This document shows, in pieces, positions 9,537 to 63,163 of a DNA stretch of 64,000 nt. Made by a program: the position numbers and the translations under genes. Source of the stretch: Dictyostelium discoideum (lineage: Eukaryota); NCBI GenBank assembly GCA_000004695.1, contig CM000152.2, forward strand, positions 5,056,001-5,120,000, in the 5' to 3' direction. The stretch's first letter is position 1. Every line of letters starts with the position of its first letter. The notes beneath the pieces are model-generated. The model was not told the origin of the DNA. It did no database searches and saw only the letters and a list, made by a program, of their open reading frames with translations.

Positions 9537-12500
9537 TTATTTATAGAAAGTACTGAGTGAATTATTGTATTTTTTGAGATGTTTAGGAAGTTCTATTGCG
9601 TGAAGAGGTGAGTTCCATTGTCTGCTAAATTGTAATAGCTTTAGCGAGATTAGTGAGTCTAATTTATTTTGTTCTTCTGGCCGTTGCTTTGATTTGATTC
9701 TTAATGTTTTGTTTATAACCGCTTGTGTCCTGTCCCATGCAGCTCTTTGTGTTTTAATTAGTTCACGTATGACTTGTTGTCTGTGAATTATTATTTCTTT
9801 TTCATCGTGAATGAGTTTATTTCTTTTGTGCCAGATTTTATCGAATATAATAGCTATTAAATTGGCTACTAGTGCAATTTGTAGATGGTTTAAAATCTTC
9901 ACATTCCAGGTGTGAGTGGTGTGTCCACACTTAGTTAGGGTGTAGTTGAAGATTTCTTGTGTGTTTTTGATGTGGGCTTTGCAGTTGAAGAATATATGTT
10001 CTGAGGTCTCATCTTCCCCACACTGTTGGCATGGCATGTTGTATATTTTTGGTAGTGCTTTCAGTGTGTATCTCCATAATAGATCTCTACCTTTCATGTT
10101 TATTATTTTTTTGATTTCTTTAAATGGAAGGTGTTTGCTATTAATTTTGGTCATTATTTCTTTTTGGCCAGGAGTTGGTATGAATTTGTTGTGTTCAGGA
10201 GATTGAGTTGTCATCATATCTTCGTATATTTTTTTTAATTTTGGGAGGTGTTCGTAGTGTGTTTGTTTATTTTGTGGAGTTTTTAATTGGGTCCATGCTT
10301 GCTTGCATTGCCAGTGTAGTTGTAGTTGATTTTGTTTTGTTGTTGTTTTGTTGTTGTTGTTGTTTTTGAGTTCCTCTTCCCACAGTTTTATATATGAACT
10401 AGGAGTGTTACTTACTCTTTGGTGGAGGTATCTTTCGAATAACCATGCTTTCTGTGCTAGTTCTCTTGTCTTCAGGTTCCATAAGTTTAGGCCACCATTG
10501 ATATAGTTGTTTTGTCTTCTTTGTAGTGAAAGAGAGTTTTTAGATTTTGTGTTGAAAACGAATTTTACGATGTTATTTTCAATACTATTGTGTTGTGGTG
10601 TGGTGTTGATGTAAGTGTGGAACGTTAACTGAGATAGTGCATATGTTTTTGCCATTATGAGTCTGCCCATATAGGTTGATGAAGTTGAGTTCCATGTTAC
10701 TAGTTTAGCTCTGATGTTGTCTGAGATTGTATTGATTTTGGATTTGATACCCTTATTGTTGAAGTCAAAGCCGAGGTACCTTTCGTTTGATTTTATGACG
10801 GTGTATAGCGTTCTGGTGTTCCATTTGAAAGTGATACACGAGCATTTGGTTTGGTTTATTTTTGCGCTGGTTGCTTGGCAAAACTTCTTGATCCATTCAT
10901 TCATGAGGAAATGGTCCATAAAGTTGTATGCTATTGTTGCTGTATCATCGGCGAACTGTAGTATTTTAATGGTTTCTTTGGTTACACCATTGATGCAGCG
11001 GTCATTTATTATAGTAGTTGCCATGCATTCAACCACTAATGCGAAGATAGTGGGAGAGATAGGATCACCTTGTTTGGTTCCTCTTTTTGATGTAAAGCTT
11101 TTAGATAATGAGTTATTGATGTACACTGATGTTTCTGATTCATTGAGTAAGTTCATTATTGTGAGGACCATTTTGAGTGGTAGTTTTAGATGTGCAAGAG
11201 TACGTAGAATGGCGTTATGTGAGATTGAATCGAATGCTTTTTCAAAATCATAAAATGTTATGATTGGTTCCATATCCTCTTTTGTGTTAATCTCTCGTTT
11301 TATTATTTCTATTGTTGAGTTTAAGGTGATGATGTTATCGTGCAGTAGTCTTCTTGGTACGAATCCAGTTTGGAATGGTGAGATTATTTTGTTTAAGAAC
11401 TTCAGGATCCTATTGTTGATTATTTTCGAATAGATTTTGTAATCGACATTTAGAAGTGTTATTGGTCTATAATTATCCAGGTTGTTTGGGTCTCCTTTGT
11501 TTTTATATATAGTAATCAATATCCCTTGTTTGAAGTCCTTTGGGATTGTTGTGTTCCAGAAGTGATTGTATAGTTTTGATATTATTGGTAGAATTTCATT
11601 AATGTGGTTTTTGTAAAATGTTGGAAGGAGTCCATCTTTACCAGGTGCTTTTCCTTCTTGTATTTTTTCAATGCCTAGTCTGATTTCATATCCTTCTATT
11701 GGTTGATTAATTTCGTCCAATATCTTTTGATCAATCCTTTTATTGAATGTTTTTAGGAGTTCGTGGTGAGTGTCTTCGTTGCATTCTCTCTTCTGGTACA
11801 GGTTCTCGTAATATCTTCTTGCTACTTCGAGGATATCCTCGTGTTTTGTTACCAAACAATTGTTGCTTGGATCTAGAATTTGAGGGATTTCATTTGTCTT
11901 TCTTTGGACTTTTAACCTTCTGGTTAAGTATTTTGATGGTGTTTCTTTGTTGTTGATGTGGGTGTTGGTTTGGTTTGCTTGTTTTATTCTTACTTGTTCC
12001 TTTAGAATATTGTTGATCTCTTCTTTAAGGAAGATTGCTCTTGAATCTTTGGCTGTTTCGAGTTTTTCTGCGAGTTCTTTTAGTTTGTTTTTGGTTTTAT
12101 TGCTTTCTCTAATTTCTATATTAATTGACAGTTTCTTTATTTCATCTTTTAGTTTCAACCATTGTTCGCAAATGTTTAATTTGTACCATTTGCTGGTGTT
12201 CTCTTCGAATTTTTTATTGTAGTATTTAATTGTTTTATTAATTTTGAGGCTGGTTGAATTCATTTTGAGAGTTTCTAGGTTTTGTCTCCATAGTCTTTCT
12301 CCTTTCTTTTGTTGCTCGTATTCTGGTATTTTTAATTCAATGATTACCATGTTGTGATCAGATTTTAATTTGATTTCCTTAGTAGTAACTATTGGGTTTA
12401 GATGGAGTATCTTCTTTGAGACAAAGACCCTATCGATGGTTGATTTGTTTCTTGGAAATGTGATTCCATTCTTAATTTCTGTAAATTCGAATTCGTCGAA

Positions 12501-12758
12501 GATTGTTTTAATATATTTGTTAAGGTTATTATCCACTGAACAGTCTACATTGAAGTCTCCGGTTATAATATCGCTGTGTAGTATTTCTTCTGTGAGATTT
12601 TCCTTATACCATTCATGTCTTTCGTTTGACTTTGCTGGGGCATAAATGGTTGTGCATTTGATCTGTGTTTTTGCAATCATCCATTCGGAAGATATAATTC
12701 TTTCGTTTATTGTTTTTGTTGTTGTTTTTATTTGGGTGTTGATGATGATTTGTGACAC
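9537..12758 (-). CDS. Retrotransposon ORF2: apurinic-type endonuclease plus reverse transcriptase polyprotein (1073 aa from the first Met)
   Basis: EEP/APE motifs (ITGDFNVD...SDHNMVIIEL), RT motifs (LLNVDYKIYSKII; FYDFEKAFDSISH; KILQFADDTATIA), and a C-terminal CQQCGEDETSEHIFFNCKAH..HKRNKLIHDE zinc-knuckle-like region. Confidence 0.9.
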   Translation of the reverse strand: MSQIIINTQIKTTTKTINERIISSEWMIAKTQIKCTTIYAPAKSNERHEWYKENLTEEILHSDIITGDFNVDCSVDNNLNKYIKTIFDEFEFTEIKNGITFPRNKSTIDRVFVSKKILHLNPIVTTKEIKLKSDHNMVIIELKIPEYEQQKKGERLWRQNLETLKMNSTSLKINKTIKYYNKKFEENTSKWYKLNICEQWLKLKDEIKKLSINIEIRESNKTKNKLKELAEKLETAKDSRAIFLKEEINNILKEQVRIKQANQTNTHINNKETPSKYLTRRLKVQRKTNEIPQILDPSNNCLVTKHEDILEVARRYYENLYQKRECNEDTHHELLKTFNKRIDQKILDEINQPIEGYEIRLGIEKIQEGKAPGKDGLLPTFYKNHINEILPIISKLYNHFWNTTIPKDFKQGILITIYKNKGDPNNLDNYRPITLLNVDYKIYSKIINNRILKFLNKIISPFQTGFVPRRLLHDNIITLNSTIEIIKREINTKEDMEPIITFYDFEKAFDSISHNAILRTLAHLKLPLKMVLTIMNLLNESETSVYINNSLSKSFTSKRGTKQGDPISPTIFALVVECMATTIINDRCINGVTKETIKILQFADDTATIAYNFMDHFLMNEWIKKFCQATSAKINQTKCSCITFKWNTRTLYTVIKSNERYLGFDFNNKGIKSKINTISDNIRAKLVTWNSTSSTYMGRLIMAKTYALSQLTFHTYINTTPQHNSIENNIVKFVFNTKSKNSLSLQRRQNNYINGGLNLWNLKTRELAQKAWLFERYLHQRVSNTPSSYIKLWEEELKNNNNNKTTTKQNQLQLHWQCKQAWTQLKTPQNKQTHYEHLPKLKKIYEDMMTTQSPEHNKFIPTPGQKEIMTKINSKHLPFKEIKKIINMKGRDLLWRYTLKALPKIYNMPCQQCGEDETSEHIFFNCKAHIKNTQEIFNYTLTKCGHTTHTWNVKILNHLQIALVANLIAIIFDKIWHKRNKLIHDEKEIIIHRQQVIRELIKTQRAAWDRTQAVINKTLRIKSKQRPEEQNKLDSLISLKLLQFSRQWNSPLHAIELPKHLKKYNNSLSTFYK

Positions 12759-12970
12759 CCCTTGTCCTGTTTTATCAATTGGTGCGTGGTGTGTTATTTT
12801 GTTTTTATATTGTTGATTTATTGAGTAAATTTTATTTGTTTTTATATTTGTTTCAGTTAGAAGTGCTGCGTCCAGCTTGTTGTTGTCTAATACGGTGTTT
12901 ATTATGCTGGCAGATTGGATGGTGTTGGATCCTTGGACGTTCCAAACACCTATTCTTATTGTGTTTTTCT

Positions 12971-14305
12971 TTATAGTTTTATTTGGGGTAGATTTTTATC
13001 TACCTTTTGAAGTTTCTGGTTTATTTTGTCTTCTAACTGATCTTTACTTTGTTCGTTGTGTTGTTGGTCTTGTGTGTTTGTGGGGTTTTTTGATTTACTG
13101 ATTTGTTTTAGAATTTCCTTGTTGAAGTTGTCTATATCTTCATCCATTTTTGTTTTTATGCTTTTTTGTCCATATTCACCCAATTTTGGTTTGACTGGTG
13201 TTTTGTTGGTCCTGTTTGTTTTGTCTTGTTGTTTGTTTTTTGGTGTGTTTAACAATTTACTTGGTGAATCGATAATTTTCGATGGTGTACCATAGGTTGG
13301 GCTGAAACTCATGATATGTTTTATTGGAGAGGAGAAGAACCATTGATTTGAAGGGATTGAAAGTGGGAATTCTATTTTTCTTATTGCATCAGTGTTTGGG
13401 CTGGTGAAGTCGAAGATATCATTTACCTCTCTAAGTTTTTCTTCCGTTGTTAGTCTCTTTGTTTCGCCGTGTTGTTTTATTGGTGTATTGTATGGAGATG
13501 GTGGTTCAATAGGTTTTTCTGATTTTGTTTTAATTTCTTGATTTTTTATCGATTGGGTATTGATCTCATTCTCTATTCTTGTTAGTTCATCTACGTTTTC
13601 TAGTGATGCATCTATTACCTTTTGAGCTGTATCATCTAGGGCCATAAATGTTTTATCATTAGATGAGGAGGTGATTGGTGGGATAATGATTGTTCTTTTT
13701 CCTTGTTTTGGTATTTGTTCTGATGTAGATTTTGGTTGTTGTTCATCTGATTGTTTTTTATTTTTGTTTTCTTCTTGATTTTCTGGTAATGAGGTTTGAT
13801 CTCTCCATCCTTTGTTGGAGTGACCAATTAATGTTAGATTGTCTAGTTCAATGATAGTGTCATATTCTTCTACGACTCTTTTCACTGTTTTGATAATTAG
13901 AGTTTCGCCTTTAATTTCAGATTTAATTAGTTTACATCCTTCATTTTCTATTACCCATTCTATTTCTGTGAGTGATTTATACCAATCGAAATCCGTATAC
14001 ATATTTTTTGGTCTTAGAGTGGTTATAAATTGTCCTTTTAATTCTGCATCGAACATATTTACAAAATAGATTACTGTACTAATACTGTCTGTGAGAATTT
14101 TGAATGTATTATTACTTTTGATTAAAACATCTTTTTTGTCCAAACTTTTTTCTAAATCTTTTTTTATTTTATCGTCTGGTTCGTGATTGATGTTTATGAC
14201 GTATTTGAATTGTTTTTTTTTTAATTGAGTTTTATCCACAATTTCGCTTATTTTTTGTAGGCATTTGTGTTGCTTAATATTTGTGGTGTTGTTTGTGATT
14301 TTCAT
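12971..14305 (-). CDS. Retrotransposon ORF1 (444 aa, basic/K-rich, probably a nucleic-acid-binding protein)
   Basis: Intact ORF directly upstream of ORF2 on the same strand. Its N-terminus is duplicated in the neighbouring partial copy, which is typical LINE ORF1 placement. Confidence 0.8.
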   Translation of the reverse strand: MKITNNTTNIKQHKCLQKISEIVDKTQLKKKQFKYVININHEPDDKIKKDLEKSLDKKDVLIKSNNTFKILTDSISTVIYFVNMFDAELKGQFITTLRPKNMYTDFDWYKSLTEIEWVIENEGCKLIKSEIKGETLIIKTVKRVVEEYDTIIELDNLTLIGHSNKGWRDQTSLPENQEENKNKKQSDEQQPKSTSEQIPKQGKRTIIIPPITSSSNDKTFMALDDTAQKVIDASLENVDELTRIENEINTQSIKNQEIKTKSEKPIEPPSPYNTPIKQHGETKRLTTEEKLREVNDIFDFTSPNTDAIRKIEFPLSIPSNQWFFSSPIKHIMSFSPTYGTPSKIIDSPSKLLNTPKNKQQDKTNRTNKTPVKPKLGEYGQKSIKTKMDEDIDNFNKEILKQISKSKNPTNTQDQQHNEQSKDQLEDKINQKLQKVDKNLPQIKL

Positions 14306-14743: not shown

Positions 14744-14829
14744 GCCATAGTAGTCTAGTGGTAAGACATTTCTCTCGTATAAAATTATACAGCGAAGAAG
14801 GATCCCGTGTTCGATTCACGGCTTTGGCA
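14744..14829 (+). tRNA. tRNA gene, probably carrying a 15-nt intron. Anticodon loop CUCGUA gives anticodon CGU (tRNA-Thr?), so the isotype is tentative.
   Basis: Acceptor GCCATAG pairs with CTTTGGC (one T.T mismatch at 5:68). D-arm is GTCT-AGTGGTA-AGAC (A-box TAGTCTAGTGG). T-arm is CCGTG-TTCGATT-CACGG (B-box GTTCGATTC). Discriminator A at 14829 is followed by T6 (a pol III terminator). Anticodon stem TTTCT/AGAAG closes only if 14780-14794 (taaaattatacagcg) is removed as a 37/38 intron. Confidence 0.7.
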
Positions 14830-27935: not shown

Positions 27936-30073
27936 TTATTTTATTATTATAAAATAATTTTTAGGTTGCAATTAAATTTATAAAAAATAATAAATTATCA
28001 GGAAAACAAAAAGAAACATGTTTTAGAGAAATTGATATTATGAAATTATTAGATCATCCAAATATAGTGAAATTATTAGATGTTGTTGATAAAAGAGAAG
28101 AAGAAGGTACAACTTATTTAATAGTTGAATATGTATCAGGTGGTGAATTATTTGATTATATAGTTGCACGTGAATATATTAAAGAGAAAGAAGCAAGAAA
28201 ATTTTTTAGACAAATGATATCGGCCATAGAGTATTGTCATGCAAATTTAATAGTTCATAGGGATTTAAAACCCGAGAATTTATTATTAGACTCAAATGGT
28301 GATATTAAAATCTCGGATTTCGGATTGAGTAATAATATTCAACCTGGTAAGCTATTGGAGTCATTTTGTGGCTCACCATTGTATGCAGCACCAGAGATAT
28401 TGAAAGCAGAGAAATATTTAGGACCACCCGTTGACATTTGGAGCTTAGGCGTTATCATGTACGCCGTGCTCTGTGGCAACTTGCCATGGGAGGGCGACTC
28501 GCAGGCAGAGATCTCGTTCAATTCAGTGCATGGTAATTACGAAGATCCCACCCATTTATCGGCAGAGGCAGTTCACATTCTACGAAGAATGATTGTACCA
28601 AATCCAAAAGATAGAGCAACGATTCAAGAACTTAAAAATCATCCATGGACCAATATTGATTATCAAGAGATTCCAAAATCTCATTTACCACCAAGAGATG
28701 CGGTTCATGAGATTAAGGAAGACATTTTCGCTCATTTAATTTCACTTGGTTTTCCAAATACAAAAGAAACTCGTGATATAATATTAAAGAATGAAAATTG
28801 TGGTATTGTAAATGTTTATCATTTACTATTGGATAGATATGCTTCTAAAGAAGTTGAAAATTTAAAATCAAAATTAGAATTACTCTCAAAAAGAAAGAAA
28901 TCTTTCTCTGATAAAAGAAATCCTTCAACAAATTCTTTAGCTTCAATTCCAGAAGATTCAAATGATTTATCTTCTAATAATAATAATAATCAACAACAAC
29001 AAAATTCACCACCTTCTAAAACTAATTCCTCTTCCACTTCTTCATCAAATAGAGAATCAAATAATAATTCTCCTTCTCAAGGTTCAATAAAAGAAATTAG
29101 TTTAGATGAGTTGGATAATCATATAGAACAATTGGATAATGATATTGAAAATTCTGATAATAATAAATCATCTTCACTTACAAGAAGATCTTCTGATCCA
29201 AATAAAGATATTGAAAATTCTTTAAAAGCTCAAGGTTTATTTTCAAGTTATTCTGCACCTGGTGTACCAAATTCTGATCATAATTATGATTTTGAAACTT
29301 ATCAACAACAACAACAATATCAACAACAACTACACCAACAACAACTACAACTACAACAACAATATCAATCACAAATACAATCCGATATATCATTCCCACA
29401 TGATGATGTTGAAATTGAAAGTTATTCAATTCAACAGCAACAACTACAACAACAACAACAACAACAACAAGAACAACACAAAGAAGATAATAATAAACCA
29501 AATACAAATTTAAGAAGAAATTCAATTGCAGTTTCAACATTTATGGAAGATGAACCAAATGAAATGCCAATTAATAATTTGTATAAAATGAATGAACAAA
29601 TTCAACAACAACCAATTATTGGTGGTAGTGGTAATGTAATGAGATCACAATTTAATCAAACATTACCAACAATTGATCAACAACCAGTTATTGAAGCACC
29701 AAAAACGAGAAGAATGAGTTTAGATTCACGTATGTTAAATGGTGATCAACAATCATTGGTTGAAAAGAATCAACATATGGCAAGTCCAAGAACTTCGAAA
29801 GGTATATTTAAATCTTCAACTACCACTACTAAATCACCAGAGAAAACAATTATCGAATTGAAAAGATCTCTCGAAGAAAGTGGTTTATTCACTAAAAAGA
29901 AAGGTCCTTACCTTTTCTTATGTTTTGATGAAGATAACTCTGTTAAATTTCAAATCGAAATCGTTAAAATTTGTAACCTTGATTTAACTGGTATTCAATT
30001 AAAAAGATTAAGTGGCGATACTTGGAAATATAAAGATATTTGTACTGAATTAGTTGAATCAATGAAATTATAA
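27659..30073 (+). CDS. MARK/Par-1-type AMPK-related Ser/Thr kinase with UBA-like and C-terminal KA1 domains, 2 exons: join(27659..27871,27965..30073)
   Basis: Exon 1 carries the glycine loop (LGNGTFGKVKLGTNICTKEN). Exon 2 starts VAIKFI (the conserved Lys) and continues [35 protein letters not shown] and DIWSLGVIMY. The UBA-like stretch is IKEDIFAHLISLGFPNTKETRDIILKNENCGIVNVYHLLLDR, the spacer is Q/N/S-rich, and the KA1 tail reads KGPYLFLCFDEDNSVKFQIEIVKICNLDLTGIQLKRLSGDTWKYKDICTELVESMKL*. GTAAAT donor at 27872, TTTTTAG acceptor at 27964. Probably one of the mrk genes. Confidence 0.88.
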
Positions 30074-31098: not shown

Positions 31099-31704
31099 AT
31101 GAAGATATTATACTTTATATTTGTAATAATAATTAATATTTTATTAATTTTGAATCATGTTAAATCAAAATATAATACGTTTATTTTTGAAAATACAGAT
31201 GGCTTTCCGGAGTGTAATAGAGAAGTTCCAATTGATAAATGTACCTTATTTTGTGGTAGACTTTTTGGTGGTCTTTCATATGATAGTGAAAAGTTAATAT
31301 TTTATGAAGGTGAAAATTGTTATACAATGATCCATGGTGAGTTTTTATGTAGTGATACAGAAAGAACTTCTTTTAGAATGGATAATTATTTAGCCGATGA
31401 TGAAAGTTGGTATAAAGCATTTTTCAACTATTTGGTAAATTGTACTTGGGACGAAAAAAATACACCGGAAACACCATCACCAACAGAAAATGCACCAAAT
31501 ACAAGTGGTGGTAGTAGTGAAGGTAATCATTACACTTATAAAAGTAGTAGTAGTAGTAGTGAACATATCAATGATATTCCAACATATTCCCACTCTGGTT
31601 ATGGAAATTATGGGGAAGATCCTCAAAGAAACATTGGTATTTCATTATCAAGTTCTTTAATTTTTATTTCAATTTTATTTTTAATAATTTTTATAAATAA
31701 TTAA
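31099..31704 (+). CDS. Small secreted or GPI-anchored Cys-rich protein (201 aa, single exon)
   Basis: N-terminal signal peptide (MKILYFIFVIIINILLILNHVKS), 8 Cys spread through the mature region, N-glycosylation sequons, an S/T-rich stalk and a C-terminal hydrophobic tail (ISLSSSLIFISILFLIIFINN*) typical of a GPI-attachment signal. Confidence 0.6.
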   Translation: MKILYFIFVIIINILLILNHVKSKYNTFIFENTDGFPECNREVPIDKCTLFCGRLFGGLSYDSEKLIFYEGENCYTMIHGEFLCSDTERTSFRMDNYLADDESWYKAFFNYLVNCTWDEKNTPETPSPTENAPNTSGGSSEGNHYTYKSSSSSSEHINDIPTYSHSGYGNYGEDPQRNIGISLSSSLIFISILFLIIFINN

Positions 31705-31846: not shown

Positions 31847-32115
31847 CTTTTTTTTTTGGGTGGGAAAATATTGCCAATGTCAGTAATTTAATATTAAAAT
31901 TATTAATACTATTTATAACTATTGTCTGATTATTTAAATTCAGCTGTTATTATTTTTTTTTTTTTTTTTGTTTTAAATGTTTGGAAGTCGCCATGAACCA
32001 TTTTTTTAAAAATTTATAAAGGAGTGTATTAATTTGGTTTATGGTTTGTGATTTGTAAATTTTTTTTTTGTTTTTTGTTTTTTTGTTTTTTTGTTTTTGG
32101 ATAATTTTTGGTAGT

Positions 32116-33966
32116 CTACATTGCTTCCAATCTTTTAACGATTTCTTGGAATGAAGGTCTTTGTTGTGGATCTTCAGACCAACATTCAGTGATAAGACGT
32201 GTGAATGGAGCTGATACTTGTGGTGGTACGATTGGTCTTAATTTATGTTGACCAACAGAAATTACAATTTGGAAAGTTGGCATACCTTGATATGGATCTT
32301 CTCTTGTTACAATTTCCCATAAAACAATTGCAAATGAGAAAACATCAGCTTTCTCAGTATATGGGTCATTTCTTAAAACTCTGTTTAAAAAAAATCATAA
32401 TAAATAATAATAATAAAAATAATAAAAATAATATATATTAATATATATTAATAATAATAATAATAAAACCCTTTCTATTATTAATAATAATTATAAAAAA
32501 ACTTACTCTGGTGCAGTCCAACAAGGTGTACCAACAGGTGTCATTGCAGTCTTTTTATCTAAATGTTTCTTAAATCTAGTTGAAAGACCAAAATCTGAAA
32601 TTTTAACTCTATAATGTTCATCAACTAAAAGATTATGACTCTTTAAATCTCTATGAATAACAATTGGATCACAACAATGTAAATAATTCTATTTTTTTTT
32701 TTTTTTTATAAAAAAAATAAAAAAGTATATTAATATTTTAAAAAAAAAAATAAAAAAAAAATTGTGCTATCTAAATTGAATTATTATATATATATATATA
32801 TATATATTACATACCATTCCTTTTGCAATATCTAAAGCCATTGATTTCATTCTTGGCCAATCTAGAGAAATTGAAGGATCATGTAAAATTCTATAGAGAC
32901 TACCTAATGGCATATATTCCATAACTATTAAAATTTCAGGTGGATTATTACAAGTACCTAAAAATTGACAAATATTTGGATGTCTTAATTGACTCATGAT
33001 TGTAGCTTCTTGAGCCAATTCATTTAAAAAGTCTTCATCGTCTTCATTCAATAATTTTGCCTTTTTAATTGCAACAATAATACCTCTCCATGTACCTGTA
33101 AATACTTCTGCACAACTACCTCTACCAATTCTATTTTGAACTACAATCTCTGATATATCAATTGGTTTAATTTCAAATAATGTTTTATAATCTAAAAATA
33201 ATTTAAAAATAAATTAAAAATAAAATTAGTATTATTATTATTATTACTATTACTATTATTATTATTATTATTAAAATTAGATTAAATTCTAAATTACTTA
33301 CCAGTTTTTAATAATGGTGATCTTTCATCATCATTTATACCAATTGGTAAAGCATGTTTACTACCATTTAATCTCTTATTTTTAATTCTTAATCTAATGA
33401 TGAAATAGATACCAACGGCAATGATTAATAAAACAGCGATACCAACACCAACGACGATATAGATAATTTTTTGATAATTTGGACTTGTTGGTTTAACAAA
33501 AGGTATAGAGGCAGCAGTATAAATGAAAAAGGTAGTATTTAAACAAAAACTTGAACCACCATCCTCACTTAATTGAATGGTTACATTGTAATCACTTGGT
33601 GTGGTTGAATTGGATTGAAGCATTGGTGGTACAACACAAGAGGCACAAGTTGAATTAATGTATGTACCCGTTGATATTACCGTACCAAATTTACATTGAA
33701 TTTGTGATGATTGATAAAATTGTTCACCAATAAAATAAACTGTTTCACCACCTGTAGATGGTGCTGTATTTGGTACCACACTATTCACCTTAAATGCAAC
33801 TGGTCCATAAAATATATTTGCTGTTACCTTACCAATACATGCTACATCAGTTTCAAATAAATTAAATATAATTGAATTATTACTACCATATCTAAAAATA
33901 TATAATAAATAAAGAATTAATTAATTTATATTGTACAATTGATATATTGGATAAAAATATATATAT

Positions 33967-34031
<65 letters not shown>

Positions 34032-34879
34032 TATATTATTTACCTATATGATGCTAAACCATTTGGATCAACATCTGGTAATGTACGAGGTGAAAAAGAT
34101 ATTTGACAATTTGGACATTGTGAAGGTGAACTTTTAGAAATGAAAAAGATACCAGCATTTTCTTCACCATTTACCAATGAAAAAACCATACTAGTTGGAG
34201 GTATAACATTGAACATACCAGTAAAAGTTACAACGATCTTATGTACTACAAACAATCCAGTTGGTGGTACAGGATCATGGAAAACATAACCATTTGCCCA
34301 TGCTGATGATGTATTACAAAGGTAATTTTGTGTGAAAACTGATGGACTGTTACATGATTTTGGGTCACAAACCTGTTCTCCACCTGTCATATAACCAGAA
34401 AATGTTAAATTAGATTGAATGGCTGGTGCTGAATCATCACTACTACTTTTTTTATTTTCCTCACTAAATGATGATGATGATGATGATGTTGATACTTGAT
34501 CAGTCCTATCTGCTGCTTTCATCATCATCATCGCTATGTCCATCTCCTCCTTCATCTCCATCTTTTTCTTATTATTCCTCGTTAATAGTTCTTGTTCTAT
34601 CTCTAATTTTGGTTCTAAATCTACTATTGCTACATTATATAATAATTTGTTTTTATTTGTTTTTTTTATTTTTTTTATTTCTTCTTTCCCTTTTTCTAAT
34701 ATTTGAGATGATGATGATGATGATGATGGTGATGGTGATGATGATAATGATAATACTTTATTTTCATTTATTCCATTAATTTTATATGATATTGAATATC
34801 CTGTACAACATATCAATATAAAAAATGAAAATAATATCGCTATTTTATTCATCCGTATATATTTATTTATTATTATCAT
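32116..34879 (-). CDS. Receptor-like TKL protein kinase with signal peptide, IPT/TIG-like ectodomain, single TM and cytoplasmic kinase, 5 exons: join(34879..34044,33891..33312,33181..32815,32688..32507,32380..32116)
   Basis: Exon 1 has the signal peptide ([16 protein letters not shown]) and a Cys-containing ectodomain. Exon 2 has an IPT/TIG-like segment ([23 protein letters not shown]...[23 protein letters not shown]), the TM ([24 protein letters not shown]) and juxtamembrane RLRIKNKR. Exons 3-5 give the kinase: [23 protein letters not shown], ...AKGM|[36 protein letters not shown]...WTAPE|[27 protein letters not shown]...[13 protein letters not shown]. Donors gtaaat/gtaagt/gtatgt/gtaagt; exon phases are consistent. 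Confidence 0.8.
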
Positions 34880-35551
34880 TTTTTTTTTCTTTTTTTTTTT
34901 TTATTTATTTATCTATAATCTATTCTTTTGTTTTTTAAAATTAATTTACTATTACTATTATTTATTATTATTGCTATTATTACAAATACTTTTATTTATT
35001 TCACTATTTTTTTTATTTTTTTTTTTGAAAAAAAAAAAAAAAAAAATTTTAGTAAAAGAAATAGATATATGTTTTTAATAGCAAAAACAACAACTACAAT
35101 AGTACATTGATTTTAATTATTTGTCGTTTCAATTTTATTATTATTATTATTTTTACTATTTTATTTAATTATTATTATTTATTTATTTTAACGAAATAGA
35201 TTTTTTTTCGAAAATTTAAAAAAAAAAAATTTTTAAAAAAAAAAAAAAAAGATTGGAAAAAAAAAAAAAAAAAAAAAAAATAAAAAATCAAAAAAATTAA
35301 AAAAATAAAACAAAATAAAAAAAAACAAAAAAAAAAAAAAAAAAAAAATAATATAACCAAAAAGATATTTTTAATATATTGATAACTCTTAAATTATCGA
35401 TAATTTTTTTTTTCAGTAATTAAATATGTAGATTTTATTATTTTAGTTATTATTATTATTATTTTTTATTATTCTATAAATTAATTTTTTTTAAATTAAA
35501 TTAACACTTTGGTTTATTATTGCCAAACTTTTTTCCCCCAGGCTTTTTTTT

Positions 35552-35807: not shown

Positions 35808-35808
<1 letters not shown>

Positions 35809-37614
35809 TAATCACTATCATCTTTAAAATTTGCCATTGGATCATCAGATCTTTTTCTTTTTAAATTATAAGCTTCCATTTGTTCCTCTGATACATTATA
35901 ATCATCAGCAGATAATGAATTATATTTAATATTTCTTTCATCTTTTTCAACTGATTTCTTATTTTCTTCATCTTGATCTTTTAATGCTTTTTTTAATTTT
36001 TCTTCTTTTTCTTTTCTTTCTTTTTTATCTTTTCTTTTTCCTTCTTTTTTATTATGTTTATCATTATCTTCATTTGATTTATTTAAATGTTGTTCTAATA
36101 ATGAGGTTGTGGTGGTAGTAGTTGTAGTTGTAGTATTATTATCGTCATCATCTTGTTGATTTTCTTGTTGTATATGATGTTGTTGTTGTTGTTGTAATTG
36201 TTTTTCACGTAATAATTTACCTTTTTCACCTGTACAATAAGCATTTTTAATTAATTGTCTGCAACAAGCGAAACCCCATTGACCATTTTCCCAATATGAA
36301 CCCCAAATTGATTTATGATTATTTAAAAATACATCCTCTTCATATTTTGATTTTACAATTTTCTCTTCACCCTTGATTAATTTACCAGAGGAACTGTATT
36401 CGGTGTAAATTTCCGATTGTGGTACTTTATCGATTTCCTCCTGTTTCAAGAGATGTTCTTCACCACCATATTTAGTTAAAAGTTGATTTCTAGTTTGTTG
36501 TTTTAATTGTTCTTTCTTTCTAAGGAAATCGGCATGTAAGAGGGCAGCTTGTGATGGTGCACTAGAGATATCGACATCTTGACCCTTTTCTTGTGCTTCC
36601 CAAGCGAATCTTTGTAAATCTCTAAACTCTTTAGTCTCACCACTTGTACGTGCAAAATTATCACCAGCAAATTTAATATCGTTTGGATTTGCATTAGGTA
36701 ATGGGTTATCTCTCATTGAACGACTCTTTGGTTCGTAGAATGCAGAGTTTACATCTAAATTATACAAATATTTTGCAGTATCTTCACGAATTCTAAGATT
36801 TCTAATTGTGGTTCTTGACTTTTGATCTAATTTTTGTATTGGTGCAACGGTTTCACTATCATATGATCCCTCCTTCTCCTCATTATCCATCAATTCTTTT
36901 GATAATGTTTCATCAACATCAGGTGTCTTTTTATCACCACCACCACCATGTTGTTTAATTAATTCTTGTAGTTTCTTTTTCTTTCTTTCTGTATCTGCTT
37001 TTTCATAGATATCCATCACCTCTTTGTATGAGGATGGGTCGTAACCATTGTATGGATCACGTTTACTATCATAATCCAATTCTAACTTTTGAATGACCTC
37101 ATCTGGTTTTATATCATCATTTGTAAATTTTGCACCCAACTTTCTTGGACGCTCACAACAATCTTTGGTTTTATGAGTCATTGCACCACAATTTTCACAT
37201 GCACCTTTTCTGAATTTGGTTGCTGCTTCACCAGTGGTTGCACCTCTTAAATACCATCCTTTATCCATCTCCTTCTTTGTAACACCACGTTGATGTTTTA
37301 AACTTGGTTTATTTGCATTTAAATACCATGGTGCTTTAAGAATATACTCTGGAATATGTGGATTAATCTCTTTACCCTCTTCATCTAACTCTGCTGGTGC
37401 ATTACCAGCTTTTCTTGCTTCATCTAATTCTTTCTCTTTCTTATACTCATCTCTTGTTTTTCTATGACCTTTTTTTTAAAAGAATAATAATAATGTTAAA
37501 ATCTTTTTTTTAATAATATAAAAAAACAAAAAGAATAAAAAAAAAAAATAATAATTTATTATATTATTATATAATAAATTAATTAAATAAATACTTACTT
37601 ATTGACGATGCCAT
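35808..37614 (-). CDS. slu7: Pre-mRNA splicing factor SLU7 homolog, 2 exons: join(37614..37599,37468..35808)
   Basis: MASSI|SHRKTRDEYKKEKELDEARKAGNAPAELDEEGKEINPHIPEYILKAPWYLNANKPSLKHQRG...FRKGACENCGAMTHKTKDCCERPRK (the SLU7 CX2CX4HX4C zinc knuckle) ...RNLRIREDTAKYLYNLDVNSAFYEPKSRSMRDNP...WGSYWENGQWGFACC...NLKRKRSDDPMANF, collinear with human and yeast SLU7. The tiny first exon ends in a GTAAGT donor, and the acceptor is ...AAAAAAG at 37469. Confidence 0.88.
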
Positions 37615-56757: not shown

Positions 56758-59700
56758 TTAATTTTTAAAACCACCAACTAAGATTGCTTTACATTGTTTT
56801 GCTCTTTCTAAGAAAAGAGAAGATTCATTTGGAAAACCTCTTTCAATTAAAAAGTTTGCATAAGCGGTTAAACAACGATAATTATTTGAATCAGCTTCAA
56901 GAGAACGAAGGAAATAATCTTCAGCTTTTTCATAACGTTCACAACGAACTAAAAAGTTTGCATAAAAGAAGAGAATGAGGGGACCTTTAGTATCGGCATC
57001 GATAGCACGTAAGAAATAACGATCAGTATTTACCACGACACGATCAGACATTGAAAATCTAACATTGGACATATTTTTACCTTGACTTGCACTAAATTCC
57101 AAAATTTTACACCAAGCTTGAGCACATAGTTGTAAGGTTTCCTTATTGTTTGGATTTGAAATTAATGCCAATTCAAAGAATTTTCTAGCTTTATGTAATA
57201 AATGAATGGCGGTACCAATTGAACGTTCAGTCATTGCTTTAGCATAAAAGAAGGTACCTTCAGCATTTGTAACCAAATCAGTATGTTTAACACGTACACC
57301 AATCTTTTTCAAATCACTAGTATCGAATGGTTGATAATGATTCCAAAGATTTGATTGAGTATCGGCCACTTTTTCAATGGTTTTCTTTCTAAATTTCAAA
57401 TGAGTCATATCTCTGAATCTAGTGAACAATAAATGACGACCAATCACTGGATCATAATTGTTACCCTCTAGTTTCTCATAGAGAATTTCTTGAAGTTTCC
57501 AACCATTTGTACTTGCTTGTTGTTGAGCTTGTTGTTGAGCTTGTTGTTGTTGTTGAGTTTGAGTTGATTGAATAGTTGGTGATGCTGGAGCCAATGGATA
57601 TTGAGTTGATTTTCTAATACCACCATCTTTTGACGATGGTGTTGTCGGATATCCACTACCACTATTATTTAAATTACCATTTCCATTGGTTGTTAAATCT
57701 AAAACATTATCACTACTTGTATTTGTACCTAAACTACCACTACTACCATTCTGTTGTTGTTGTTGTTTATGCATCGTTAAAACCGTTGGAATATTAATAA
57801 TATAGAATTTTGAAGCCAATTCATTCTTTACTGTTACATTCCAAAATTCATTAGTATCGAAATCTGTCAATGTTGAAATACCAAAAACCATATTTAAGAA
57901 TTTAGTTGTCAAATCAATATAAGGTGCTGATAAGGGTTGATTATAACGTTTCATTGCACTTCTTAATCTTCTACGTAAATCATTTTTAAGTACTCTTGCA
58001 ATGGCTTCGATGAGTAGTACAAAGCAAGCATCTCTATCATCCATAATCACCAACATATGACCTATCCAACGCATATTAATACCTTGTCTATGGAATTGTT
58101 CTGGAATATGAACATCACCAGTCAACAAAGTACCATTGTTTAGTGATTCTTTAATCATCCACTTTAGACGAACTGATAGACGTGGAATTAACTCTGTTAA
58201 CAATCTATTGGAAGCTTCTTTTACCTCTTGATTATGAATCAATCTATCTTTATCATTCTTTATAAAACCACTGAATGCATCGGAGCATAATGGTTTTGGA
58301 TGATTCTTTAGGAACTCTGGTCTAAACAATTGGAATAAATGACCACCTGGTACATTTTCATCTGGATAAGTTGGTGGAAAGGTACGAGAGAAATCTATTA
58401 AATAAAATCTACCATCGGTACCGATATGACCTTCGATATCTGTGGCGGAATAAAGTAGAGTGGGTGGAACTGATGTACCACCTAAATGAGGTTTCAAATT
58501 TAACATTTGTGATAATGAATGCATAATTGGTAATGCTTTTTCATTTGCATGAACTGTTTTACCCATATCACTTGAACCATAGACGATAGTTGATTTTTCA
58601 CCACTTGAAATGATTGGTAAGTAGCTCATTGCAATCAAACGGAAACCCATAAAATCTACTAAAGCCATCAAAGGTACACAAAGACCACCGATTGGACAAT
58701 TTAAAGTTGCCATACAACCTTTTAATTCTTGACCACCAACTTTTGCTCCACCCCATTCATCATAAACATTTGAACTTCCAGAGAATTTAAAGAGTACATT
58801 TCTTACAATATATTTATCACCACCTAAATGACCACCAATTGAACGACTTTGAATGGTTTTCTCTTTTAAATAACGTTCTTCAATGATAATTCTACCATAG
58901 GTTTTGACAGTATGTATAAAATCTTGAGAAATATGTAATAAATCTGTACAAATCTCTTGTAAGCGATAAAGATTTGTATCCAATGATGGAAATTCTCTAA
59001 ATCTAAGTACAACTTTTTGAAATCTTTCATTCAAATCTGATTCATCATCTAATTTAGATTCATCATCATCATCTTCTTGTTTATTTTTTCTTTGATTTGT
59101 TGGTGATGATGAATTTGGTGTTAAATTTCTATTGCTATTGCTATTGCTATTATTGGATTGTTTATTTTGTTGAATTTCATATGGATCAATATTATCTGGT
59201 TGTTGTAATAGTTTATCACTACTGTTTGATTTTATATCATCTCTTAATGGTTGAGAAGTTTGTTTATTATTACTACTATTTACACTTGTTATAAAATTAC
59301 TTTCAGCTCTATTTAAAACCCTATCACCACGAGACGGTGATTGAATTGAGAAAGTGGATGTTGATCTATGAATTGTTTGCTGTCTAGATTCTTCATTCTC
59401 TGAATCGTACTCTGATAAATCATCTCTATCATAACCAGAAATAATCGATTCAGTATCATATGGATTTTGATTATTTTGATTTGGTGAATTTGGATTATCT
59501 ACAGCTGAAAATATTGCCATTGAATTTGATGATAATGACATTCCAGTCTTTGCTACACTATTAATATTTAAAAATCCATGTTGTTCACCAACTACACTTG
59601 TATTCATATTAGCTCTATTTAATGTAAAATTATTAACAATTGCTATTGGTTTAGTAGTTCCATTATTATTATTATTATTATTGTTATTATTATTAATATT

Positions 59701-59842
59701 ATTATTAATATTATTATTATTGTTATTATTATTATTTTCATTCATATTATTTAAAAATGCATTTAATTGAGAATTTAATGTTGATGCTGTCACTGTTCGA
59801 GTTAATGTTGGTGGTGGTTCAACAATTGTTACATTGTTATCA

Positions 59843-59907
<65 letters not shown>

Positions 59908-61448
59908 TTTATTATCATCATCATCATTATTATTATTATTTTCATTATTATTAATATTATTAATAATATTATTATTGTTATTATTATTATTGTTGTTTTG
60001 ATTATTACTAATGGTTATATTTGATTGCATTATACCACCTAAAACTACACTATTACCACGATTAATTGGATCTCTTGAAGTTGGAAATGCTTTATTAAAA
60101 CCAATTCCATTCGTATTGTTTATAATATTATTATTATTATTACTATTATTATCAATTGGTTGTATAGTTGTAGAATTAACAATAGAAGAAGGTGTTGGAG
60201 GAGGTGGTTCTCTTGGTAATGCACTTGAATGTCTTAAACTACTTTTAGAAGCAATACTTGGTAATACTTCCAATGTATTACGATGCCAATTTTTTTGTTC
60301 GTCTTCAGAAGGTTGAAAGCCATAGGCCTGATTATAGGCATTGTCATAATCAACCTCTGGTGATGGTGACGATGATATCTTTATTGGTGGTTGTTGTCTG
60401 AGTTGATCTTGTTGAGATTGCGTTGGTGGTGGTGGTGGTACAGGTGTTATAAATGATGGTGTTGATATTATAACTGGTGATCTATTAAGTTGTTGTTGCT
60501 GTTGCTGTTGCTGTTGTTGCTGTAGTTGTTGCTGTAGGTCATATTGATGTTGTTGAGCTTGGGCTTGAGCCAATTGCTGAGCCAATTGTTGAGCCTGAGC
60601 CTGTTGTTGTTGAAGATTTAAAGCATTTACATAGTTATGTAAATTATTTATATTAGTACTACTATTTAAATTGAATGGTTGATTTACAGATAAGGAGGAA
60701 GAGGTTGGAGTTTGTGGTGGTTGTAATTGATTATTGTTATTATTATTATTGCTATTATTATTATTCGTTGATGATACAGTTGATGTTGTGGTTGTGGTTG
60801 TAGTTGTAGTTGTTATGGATATAGTATTTATATTTGTGCTACTACCATCAAGGGTTGGTGAAGTTGAAGTTGTATTTAAACTATTTGCAACTTCATTTGA
60901 ACAAACCCTATAATAATTGATTCTTCCATTTGAATCTTTAAACGGAGGTCTTGATGGGAATGGTACACTAAGAATTTGATGTCTTCTTCTTTTGAAATTT
61001 TCTTCGGTCGTTGTTGGTGTATTACCAATGCTACTACCACTACTACCCATACCATTATTAAAAAACCCACTATCCTTTATACTCGTGGTACCATTGTTAC
61101 CATTATTATTTGGTAAAAATGATGAATTTAAATTTATTGGTAAAATATTTTTTGGTGATGTCACACCTTTTGCATTTTCTTTCTCCTTTTCTTTTTCTCT
61201 TTCTTTTTCTTTCTCTTTCTCTTTTTCTTTTTCTTTTTCTTTTTCTTTATCTTTTTCTTTATCGCCTGAATTTTTTAAATTTTTAAATACACCTTTCTTT
61301 TTAATTGATCCATTACTATCATTTTTATCATTTTTATTGTTACCGCTGTTATTATTATTATTGTTATTCATGTTATTATTATTATTATTACTACTGTTAT
61401 TATCAGTATTGATATTATTATTATTAATATTATTATTACTACTACTAC

Positions 61449-61529
<81 letters not shown>

Positions 61530-61538
61530 TAATGCTAC

Positions 61539-61605
<67 letters not shown>

Positions 61606-61672
61606 GTTGTTATTATTAATGCTATTAGTGTTATTATTATTATTATTACTATTATTATTATTGTTATTGTTA

Positions 61673-61748
<76 letters not shown>

Positions 61749-62171
61749 TATTATTATTATTTATATTGTTACCGCTATTATTACTATTTATACCGCTCGT
61801 ACTATTTTCGTTTATATTAATATTATTATTATTAATAATATTATTATTATTCGTATTATTCGTATTATTATTATTATTTATATTTATATTATTGTTAACA
61901 TTATTATTATTAATGCTATTAGAATTATTAGAATTATTATTTACACTCGAATTACTTGAAGTTAATAGATTACTGCCGCTACTAGTTGATGATACACTAT
62001 TAACACTACTAGCTAAACCACTATTACTATTTACACTCAAGCTATTGCTATCTTGTTCTCTTAAGCCATTACTGCTTAATAGTTGATCCCTATTCGAACC
62101 ACCACTTATACTTCCACTAAATATATAATGATTACTAGAATTTAATGGTTGTAAAGATGGTGATGATGAAC

Positions 62172-62223
<52 letters not shown>

Positions 62224-63163
62224 GCTATTGTTATTATTATTATTATTATTATTATTGCTATTGCTATTACTTGAAGATGAAGAAAAAAATTTATTAAAAA
62301 GACCTTTTTCTTTCTTTTTTGGATCCTTTTCTTTCTCTTTCTCCTTTTCTTTTTCTTTTTCTTTCTCTTTTTCCTTTTCTTTTTCTTTACCTATATTATT
62401 GCTATTGATTAAATTCATACCACTACCACTACCAAAACTACCACTATGATCTCTTTTAGAAGATCTTGCAGATGGTGATGATACTGACATAGTTGTAGTA
62501 CTATTTGTTGATGACGACGATGATGATGTGATTGTTGGTGTTATTGAATTATTACCAACCAAACCAAACTGGTGTGGTGTAATAATCATTTTTGCAATTG
62601 TAAGGAATATTAAATCTATATTTTCATTTCTTAATGCTGAACATTCAATACCAATAAACTTATTTAATAAACAAAAACTTCTAACCATTTCTGGTGGAGT
62701 CTTTTTCTCTAAATCTGATTTACATCCAACAACTAATATAGGTGTATTTACTGGTACATATCTTTTGGCCTCTATTGACCATTTTGATGTTATCTTTTCA
62801 AATGATTCTCTATTTGATGAATCATAAACAATAATTAATCCTTGTGCTCCTCTTAAAAAAAAAAAAAAAAAATTAATTAACATTTTTATAATATTTTTAA
62901 AATAAAAAATTTAAGCTTACTTGTAAAAACTTGATGTTAAATTTGATATTTTCTCTTGCCCAAATGTATCCCCCTATAATTAAAAAATAAAAAAAAAATA
63001 AAAAGTTAAAAAAATGACTTAATTATAGTTATAATTTTATTTTTTTACATACAATTTGAAGTTTATGTGATTTACCAGCAACTTCTACTGATTTAAATTT
63101 CTAAAATAAAAAATTAAATAAAAAAAAAAAAAAAAATAAAGTTAATTTCTTATTTAAAATAAA

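Follow-up and report, generated by a model that had tools for sequence, protein, structure and literature searches.

The gene on the minus strand at positions 32,116 to 34,879 of the window (the whole stretch of 64,000 nucleotides of Dictyostelium discoideum DNA analysed here) is almost certainly drkC (synonyms rk3 and vsk3), which encodes a type-I single-pass membrane protein. By exact protein look-up, the spliced product is identical over 749 of 749 residues to EAL66509.1 / XP_640488.1 / UniRef100_Q54TA1, entries that carry the database names 'protein tyrosine kinase [Dictyostelium discoideum AX4]' and 'Probable serine/threonine-protein kinase drkC'. The amoebozoan origin that an earlier note had proposed for this gene is therefore correct, and where that note advised a comparison with the annotated receptor-type TKL kinases of D. 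discoideum, the gene proved to be one of them, with a product identical over its full length. Goldberg et al. 2006 (PLoS Genet 2:e38; PMC1420674) described rk3 as a receptor kinase of the TKL/DRK family whose extracellular part carries a TIG domain. The names VSK1-3 for rk1-3 come from Fang et al. 2007 (J Cell Biol 178:411; PMC2064856), whose study dealt with VSK3, and the signal peptide and domain architecture of drkC are also given by Bodinier et al. (PMC7003747). drkC is thus already known, with its architecture published in 2006 (PMC1420674) and its function in 2007 (PMC2064856). Papers of 2006-2007 already cover the gene, its architecture, kinase group, topology, localisation and knockout phenotype, and as a finding of a genome scan it carries little weight. 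The additions made here are minor: a lumenal module that in a low-confidence model bears a likeness to jelly-roll folds, and the faster evolution of the lumenal region.

The published VSK3 is the present gene and not a paralogue, as verified by the agreement of primers, catalytic lysine and deletion end points. All six published VSK3 primer segments (PMC2064856) match the gene exactly and at the expected positions. The 3' 30 nt of primer 1 of Fang et al. match 34850-34879. Four segments fall in exon 3: one delta-K primer at 33145, the primer for K-YFP at 33150, and primer 2, whose halves match at 33066 and 33040. The second delta-K primer maps at 32126 in exon 5, where the published primer gaaatcgttaaaagattgga occupies 32126-32145. 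The lysine of the VAIK motif is K518, the invariant ATP-site lysine altered in the published K518R mutant. With numbering from the ATG at 34879, the published deletion end points, aa 492-740 and aa 1-481, coincide with I491/E741 and F481. The correspondence of DrkC/rk3/VSK3 (Q54TA1) to the present gene hence extends over all 749 residues, K518, the primers and the architecture, and nothing argues against the identification. There is some ambiguity over the start codon: the AX4 model and the cDNA construct of Fang et al. (2007) use the ATG at 34879, while a second ATG (M10, 34850-34852) is the start of KAM9950386.1 (740 aa) in a newer D. discoideum annotation, and the orthologues of D. citrinum and D. 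dimigraforme likewise begin at M10. The signal peptide is retained with either start.

Translation of the minus strand from 32050 to 34950 reveals five long stretches of open frame with canonical splice signals at their ends. The splice model derived from this translation has five exons and an in-frame CDS of 2250 nt, running from 34879, the first base of the ATG, to 32116, the final base of the stop codon, which are the limits the earlier note had set. Its five phase-consistent exons are borne out by the open frame and by four introns (152, 110, 126 and 126 nt) that are all of the GT..AG type. The introns have a GC content of 7% and the exons 31%, within a window that is extremely AT-rich (11-36% GC per kb). 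Such extreme AT-richness is typical for Dictyostelium. Stitching together open reading frames in AT-rich sequence carries a general risk, and nothing else speaks for a gene model that is a reading-frame artefact or a pseudogene. We give this reading practically no credence, and the evidence already refutes it: the introns are canonical at four of four positions and differ sharply in GC content from the exons, the spliced product exactly equals a curated protein, the cloned cDNA rescues the null when expressed (PMC2064856), and the kinase domain has kept 81-100% identity in five other species.

Table 1. Coordinates of drkC features in the window.
Feature	Residues	Position	Strand	Remark
drkC/vsk3 coding region, ATG to stop		32116..34879	-	5 exons, 4 introns
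Exon 1	1-278 + 2 nt	34044..34879	-	Signal peptide, low-complexity Ser/Lys/Glu spacer, most of N-module
Exon 2		33302..33891	-	End of N-module, TIG domain, TM helix, start of juxtamembrane region
Exon 3		32815..33191	-	End of juxtamembrane region, kinase N-lobe up to subdomain VIa
Exon 4		32507..32688	-	Catalytic loop, DFG, activation segment
Exon 5		32116..32380	-	Kinase C-lobe, stop codon (32116-32118)
Signal-peptide region	1-29	34793..34879	-	Hydropathy peak aa 7-32
Conserved unannotated lumenal N-module, ~160 aa	150-312	33792..34432	-	Spans intron 1; conserved in 5 orthologues
IPT/TIG domain	314-397	33537..33788	-	Pfam PF01833
Transmembrane helix	421-444	33396..33467	-	Kyte-Doolittle maximum 2.98, 19-residue windows
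TKL-type kinase domain	492-746	32128..33144	-	Pfam PF07714; spans introns 3 and 4
K518 codon	518	33064-33066	-	
HRDLKSHN motif		32632-32655	-	
DFG motif		32587-32595	-	

A number of other genes and candidate genes are present in the window. Upstream of drkC and in the same orientation, the adjacent gene (35808-37268, minus strand) encodes a Slu7 pre-mRNA splicing factor (PF11708, E 3.1e-91). Downstream of drkC, on the opposite strand, a 677-aa ORF (28040-30073, plus strand) contains a Ser/Thr kinase domain and a C-terminal KA1 domain, the make-up of a MARK-type kinase; its kinase match begins at profile position 52, so that the ORF lacks one or more upstream exons. A 201-aa ORF (31099-31704, plus strand) has an N-terminal signal-like segment, several cysteines and a Ser-rich stretch, and it ends in a hydrophobic tail that looks like a GPI-anchor signal or TM segment; it has no Pfam match. 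The minus strand at 9537-14305 holds a pair of ORFs, the first of 444 aa and the second of 1073 aa with a reverse-transcriptase domain (RVT_1, E 2.9e-33), and the 5' end of this pair faces a tRNA-Thr(CGT) gene (14744-14829, plus strand) ~440 bp away; the region has a GC fraction of 0.26-0.36 and a strong AT skew. This layout looks like that of a Dictyostelium tRNA-gene-targeted non-LTR retroelement of the TRE5 type. Finally, a 2041-aa ORF at 56758-62883 (minus strand) has a CLU 'clustered mitochondria' domain at aa 1283-1505 (E 5.6e-50) and, at its N-terminus, a partial match to Ras-family GTPases (aa 9-100, E 4e-14); this match begins at profile position 68, so that an upstream exon is likely.

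The signal peptide and single transmembrane helix that the earlier note had predicted for the product are both present by hydropathy. The N-terminus has a basic n-region and a 13-residue hydrophobic core followed by TGYS, with small residues preceding the likely cleavage site, and the Kyte-Doolittle profile of the 749-aa protein displays just two peaks (aa 7-32 and aa 417-450), a pattern that fits a cleaved signal peptide and one type-I TM helix. The basic stretch RLRIKNKR lies directly C-terminal of the helix. This assignment is based on hydropathy, on published predictions, with the signal peptide of the drkC product reported in PMC1420674, PMC2064856 and PMC7003747, and on topology determined by protease protection. 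Fluorescence protease-protection experiments place the C-terminal kinase in the cytoplasm (PMC2064856), and the TIG-bearing part therefore faces the lumen. Together with the C-terminal kinase, the signal peptide and single TM helix reproduce the layout of the DRK family.

The IPT/TIG domain adjacent to the membrane matches PF01833 with an E-value of 6.9e-9 over profile positions 3-81 of 84, and its score of 36.0 bits lies well above the gathering threshold of 20.9. When the translation of exon 2, which holds the TIG domain and TM helix, served as query for an exhaustive phmmer search, 1060 proteins were returned at E <= 1e-3. The top matches were giant multi-TIG-repeat proteins with up to 45 matching stretches each, and their dominance makes the TIG assignment robust at the sequence level. 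In structure model comparison the region adopts an Ig-like beta-sandwich that is superposable on solved TIG domains. The IPT/TIG fold that the earlier note had ascribed to the ectodomain is thus upheld for this region, but the domain accounts for only ~85 of roughly 390 extracytoplasmic residues. The same note had called the ectodomain Cys-rich, a description that applies mildly but not strongly, with 10 cysteines in aa 30-420 (2.6%). All 10 fall within a conserved core, aa 150-412, where they make up 3.8% of residues; eight of them (C171, C176, C188, C255, C258, C297, C345 and C364) are kept in every orthologue that covers the site, while C395 is shared by five of six sequences.

The conserved core also takes in the N-module, which follows a low-complexity Ser/Lys/Glu spacer (aa 33-149), precedes the TIG domain and contains six of the conserved cysteines: C171, C176, C188, C297, and the pair C255-P-N-C258 that forms a CPNC motif. 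Searches with this module gave no Pfam and no PDB sequence match, and it is described neither in PMC1420674 or PMC2064856 nor in Pfam. It is an unannotated domain distinct from TIG. Two candidate identities were rejected: a degenerate second TIG domain, to which hhalign assigned a probability of 1.2%, and a zinc ribbon, for which the weak Pfam matches (E 0.003-0.2, one or two members each) merely reflect the CPNC motif and which would be unlikely on the lumenal side. An AlphaFold2 model of the ectodomain, calculated from a six-sequence alignment, is all-beta with low confidence (mean pLDDT 55); a single-sequence model was unusable (mean pLDDT 34). Within the alignment-based model the N-module (pLDDT ~50-65) resembles the beta-jelly-roll of carbohydrate-binding modules, with likeness to CBM15, CBM35/6/36, Cry toxin domain III and the TNF-like lectin PLTL, at a sequence identity of just 6-13% and at Z-scores where jelly-roll matches are generic. 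Given a weak model and generic matches, we regard the jelly-roll likeness as a lead rather than a result.

Orthologues that combine TIG and kinase in this layout come from D. citrinum (87% identity), D. dimigraforme (80%), D. purpureum (68%) and Tieghemostelium lacteum (52%), and an environmental dictyostelid-like sequence (65%) has the layout as well. Below these, the matches cover the kinase only and are to plant EDR1/CTR1-like proteins and Balamuthia kinases. Identity is distributed unevenly along the protein: in the kinase domain it is 97% to D. purpureum and 81% to T. lacteum, falling to 86% and 68% in the juxtamembrane region, 51% and 36% in the TIG domain, and 35% and 26% in the N-module. 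Judged by these identities, the lumenal part is evolving far faster than the almost invariant kinase.

The kinase domain matches PF07714 (PK_Tyr_Ser-Thr) with an E-value of 1.6e-66 and has a complete set of motifs: GRGSCA, VAIK (K518), HRDLKSHN at 613, DFG at 633 and APE at 660. Searching the PDB with this domain showed that the closest identifiable kinases all belong to the TKL group (CTR1, TNNI3K, MAP3K12, ZAK, MLK1/4, TAK1, ILK, Roco4 and RAF), the best solved relative being CTR1 (PDB ID: 3ppz, E 2.1e-63), with TK-group kinases (ABL, Src-Abl ancestor) trailing by 60-80 bits. The complete TKL-type kinase of the earlier note is thus confirmed, in agreement with the placement of this kinase in TKL/DRK by Goldberg et al. 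(2006; PMC1420674) and with their report that Dictyostelium is without TK-group kinases. The same search returned PDB entry 9p9u_A (678 aa), labelled 'Epidermal growth factor receptor', which at E 9.2e-60 stood far above the other TK-group kinases although none of its stretches passed; this chain could be an engineered or chimeric protein or be oddly labelled, and has no bearing on the group assignment. The earlier note's remark on the rarity of transmembrane receptor kinases outside animals and plants has to be softened, as D. discoideum alone has nine single-pass receptor-type TKL kinases (PMC1420674).

Comparison with known systems places DrkC in the DRK family of the TKL group. DrkA and DrkB (rk1/rk2, VSK1/VSK2) share with it a signal peptide, a single TM helix, a closely related C-terminal TKL kinase and localisation to vesicles, VSK2 being placed on late endosomes/lysosomes by unpublished data cited in PMC2064856; they differ in their ectodomains, which according to Goldberg et al. 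2006 (PMC1420674) hold a Dictyostelium-specific 'drk' domain without TIG. MET/RON and plexins, like DrkC, are type-I proteins with membrane-proximal extracytoplasmic IPT/TIG domains, and MET/RON also have a cytoplasmic kinase active on tyrosine. They have three or four TIG domains, however, whereas DrkC has one and is endolysosomal. Sema and PSI domains are absent from DrkC even at a Pfam E-value cut-off of 1, and its kinase is nearest to CTR1, TNNI3K, MLK and TAK1 rather than to the TK group. Membership of the MET/RON family is rejected on these grounds (no Sema or PSI, one TIG, a TKL and not a TK kinase), and the likeness of DrkC to MET/RON and plexins is one of common domain use, not orthology. 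The closest kinase domains outside the dictyostelids are those of the plant Raf-like TKL kinases CTR1/EDR1, with EDR1-like proteins 41-51% identical over the kinase; these are soluble or peripheral proteins without signal peptide, TM helix or TIG, and the relation is confined to the catalytic domain.

The vsk3 mRNA peaks in growing cells, and VSK3-YFP, an over-expressed C-terminal fusion, is found on late endosomes/lysosomes labelled by dextran and neutral red (PMC2064856). In vsk3-null cells phagocytic cups and engulfment are normal, and phagosomes fuse poorly with late endosomes/lysosomes (PMC2064856). Immunoprecipitated VSK3-YFP and the isolated kinase phosphorylated a tyrosine peptide ~60% as well as Src, with no activity in a Ser/Thr assay; in both K518R and the kinase deletion, activity was lost and there was no rescue (PMC2064856). 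The UniProt name 'probable serine/threonine-protein kinase' contrasts with this sole assay, which was tyrosine-specific and performed on immunoprecipitates. A co-precipitating kinase is an unlikely source of the tyrosine activity, given the K518R control.

These observations bear on where the protein would signal. The earlier note described a receptor-like protein with an ectodomain; the region is indeed topologically extracytoplasmic, but at the late endosome/lysosome it faces the vesicle lumen and not the cell exterior. A signal peptide, ectodomain, single TM helix and kinase make up the classic receptor-kinase layout, Goldberg et al. 2006 (PMC1420674) listed the protein among 'receptor kinases', and cycling through the endocytic pathway may bring it transiently to the cell surface, all of which would suit a plasma-membrane receptor kinase whose TIG ectodomain binds an extracellular ligand and signals inward in the manner of metazoan RTKs or plexins. 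VSK3-YFP, though, rims the acidic vesicles labelled by dextran and neutral red and not the plasma membrane, and the defect of the null lies in phagosome-lysosome fusion and not in engulfment or chemotaxis (PMC2064856), which leaves signalling from the plasma membrane very improbable.

The arrangement that we favour is one in which the N-terminal signal peptide would route DrkC into the secretory/endocytic pathway, the segment N-terminal of the TM helix (the low-complexity spacer, the beta-rich module of ~160 aa and a single IPT/TIG domain) would face the vesicle lumen, and the TKL-group kinase lies on the cytoplasmic side, where it could be regulated by lumenal domains that sense the content of the vesicle. 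Ligand-regulated signalling is a property that we infer, and 'receptor-like' therefore refers to architecture. The lumenal region may instead be no sensor at all, serving only in sorting, anchoring or oligomerisation beneath a kinase that is constitutively active on the vesicle surface. Consistent with this, localisation is dictated by determinants outside the kinase domain, and the isolated kinase (K-YFP) is cytosolic and active in vitro, with less activity per protein than the full-length form (PMC2064856); lumenal identity to T. lacteum is only 26-36%, against 81-100% for the kinase across species; and no ligand of VSK3 is known (review PMC3135261). On the other hand, the lumenal core (aa 150-412) retains eight conserved cysteines and ~40 invariant positions across dictyostelid groups, a degree of conservation that exceeds the needs of a mere spacer, and genuine receptors exposed to microbial ligands typically have fast-evolving ectodomains too. 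We consider a purely structural role for the lumenal region a credible but unlikely alternative to lumenal sensing.

The remaining biological interest of VSK3 lies in its ligand and substrates (review PMC3135261) and in its conserved lumenal module. The jelly-roll likeness of the low-confidence model raises the speculative idea, to which we attach a small probability, that the N-module is a glycan-binding domain sensing ingested bacterial or yeast polysaccharide in the phagolysosome lumen, coupled to a cytosolic tyrosine kinase that licenses phagosome-lysosome fusion. If this were true, DrkC would be an amoebal pattern-recognition receptor kinase working within the vesicle, and the rapid evolution of its lumenal part, set against a near-invariant kinase, would represent adaptation to prey. 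A glycan-binding N-module would make VSK3 an early-branching kinase-coupled sensor of phagosome content.
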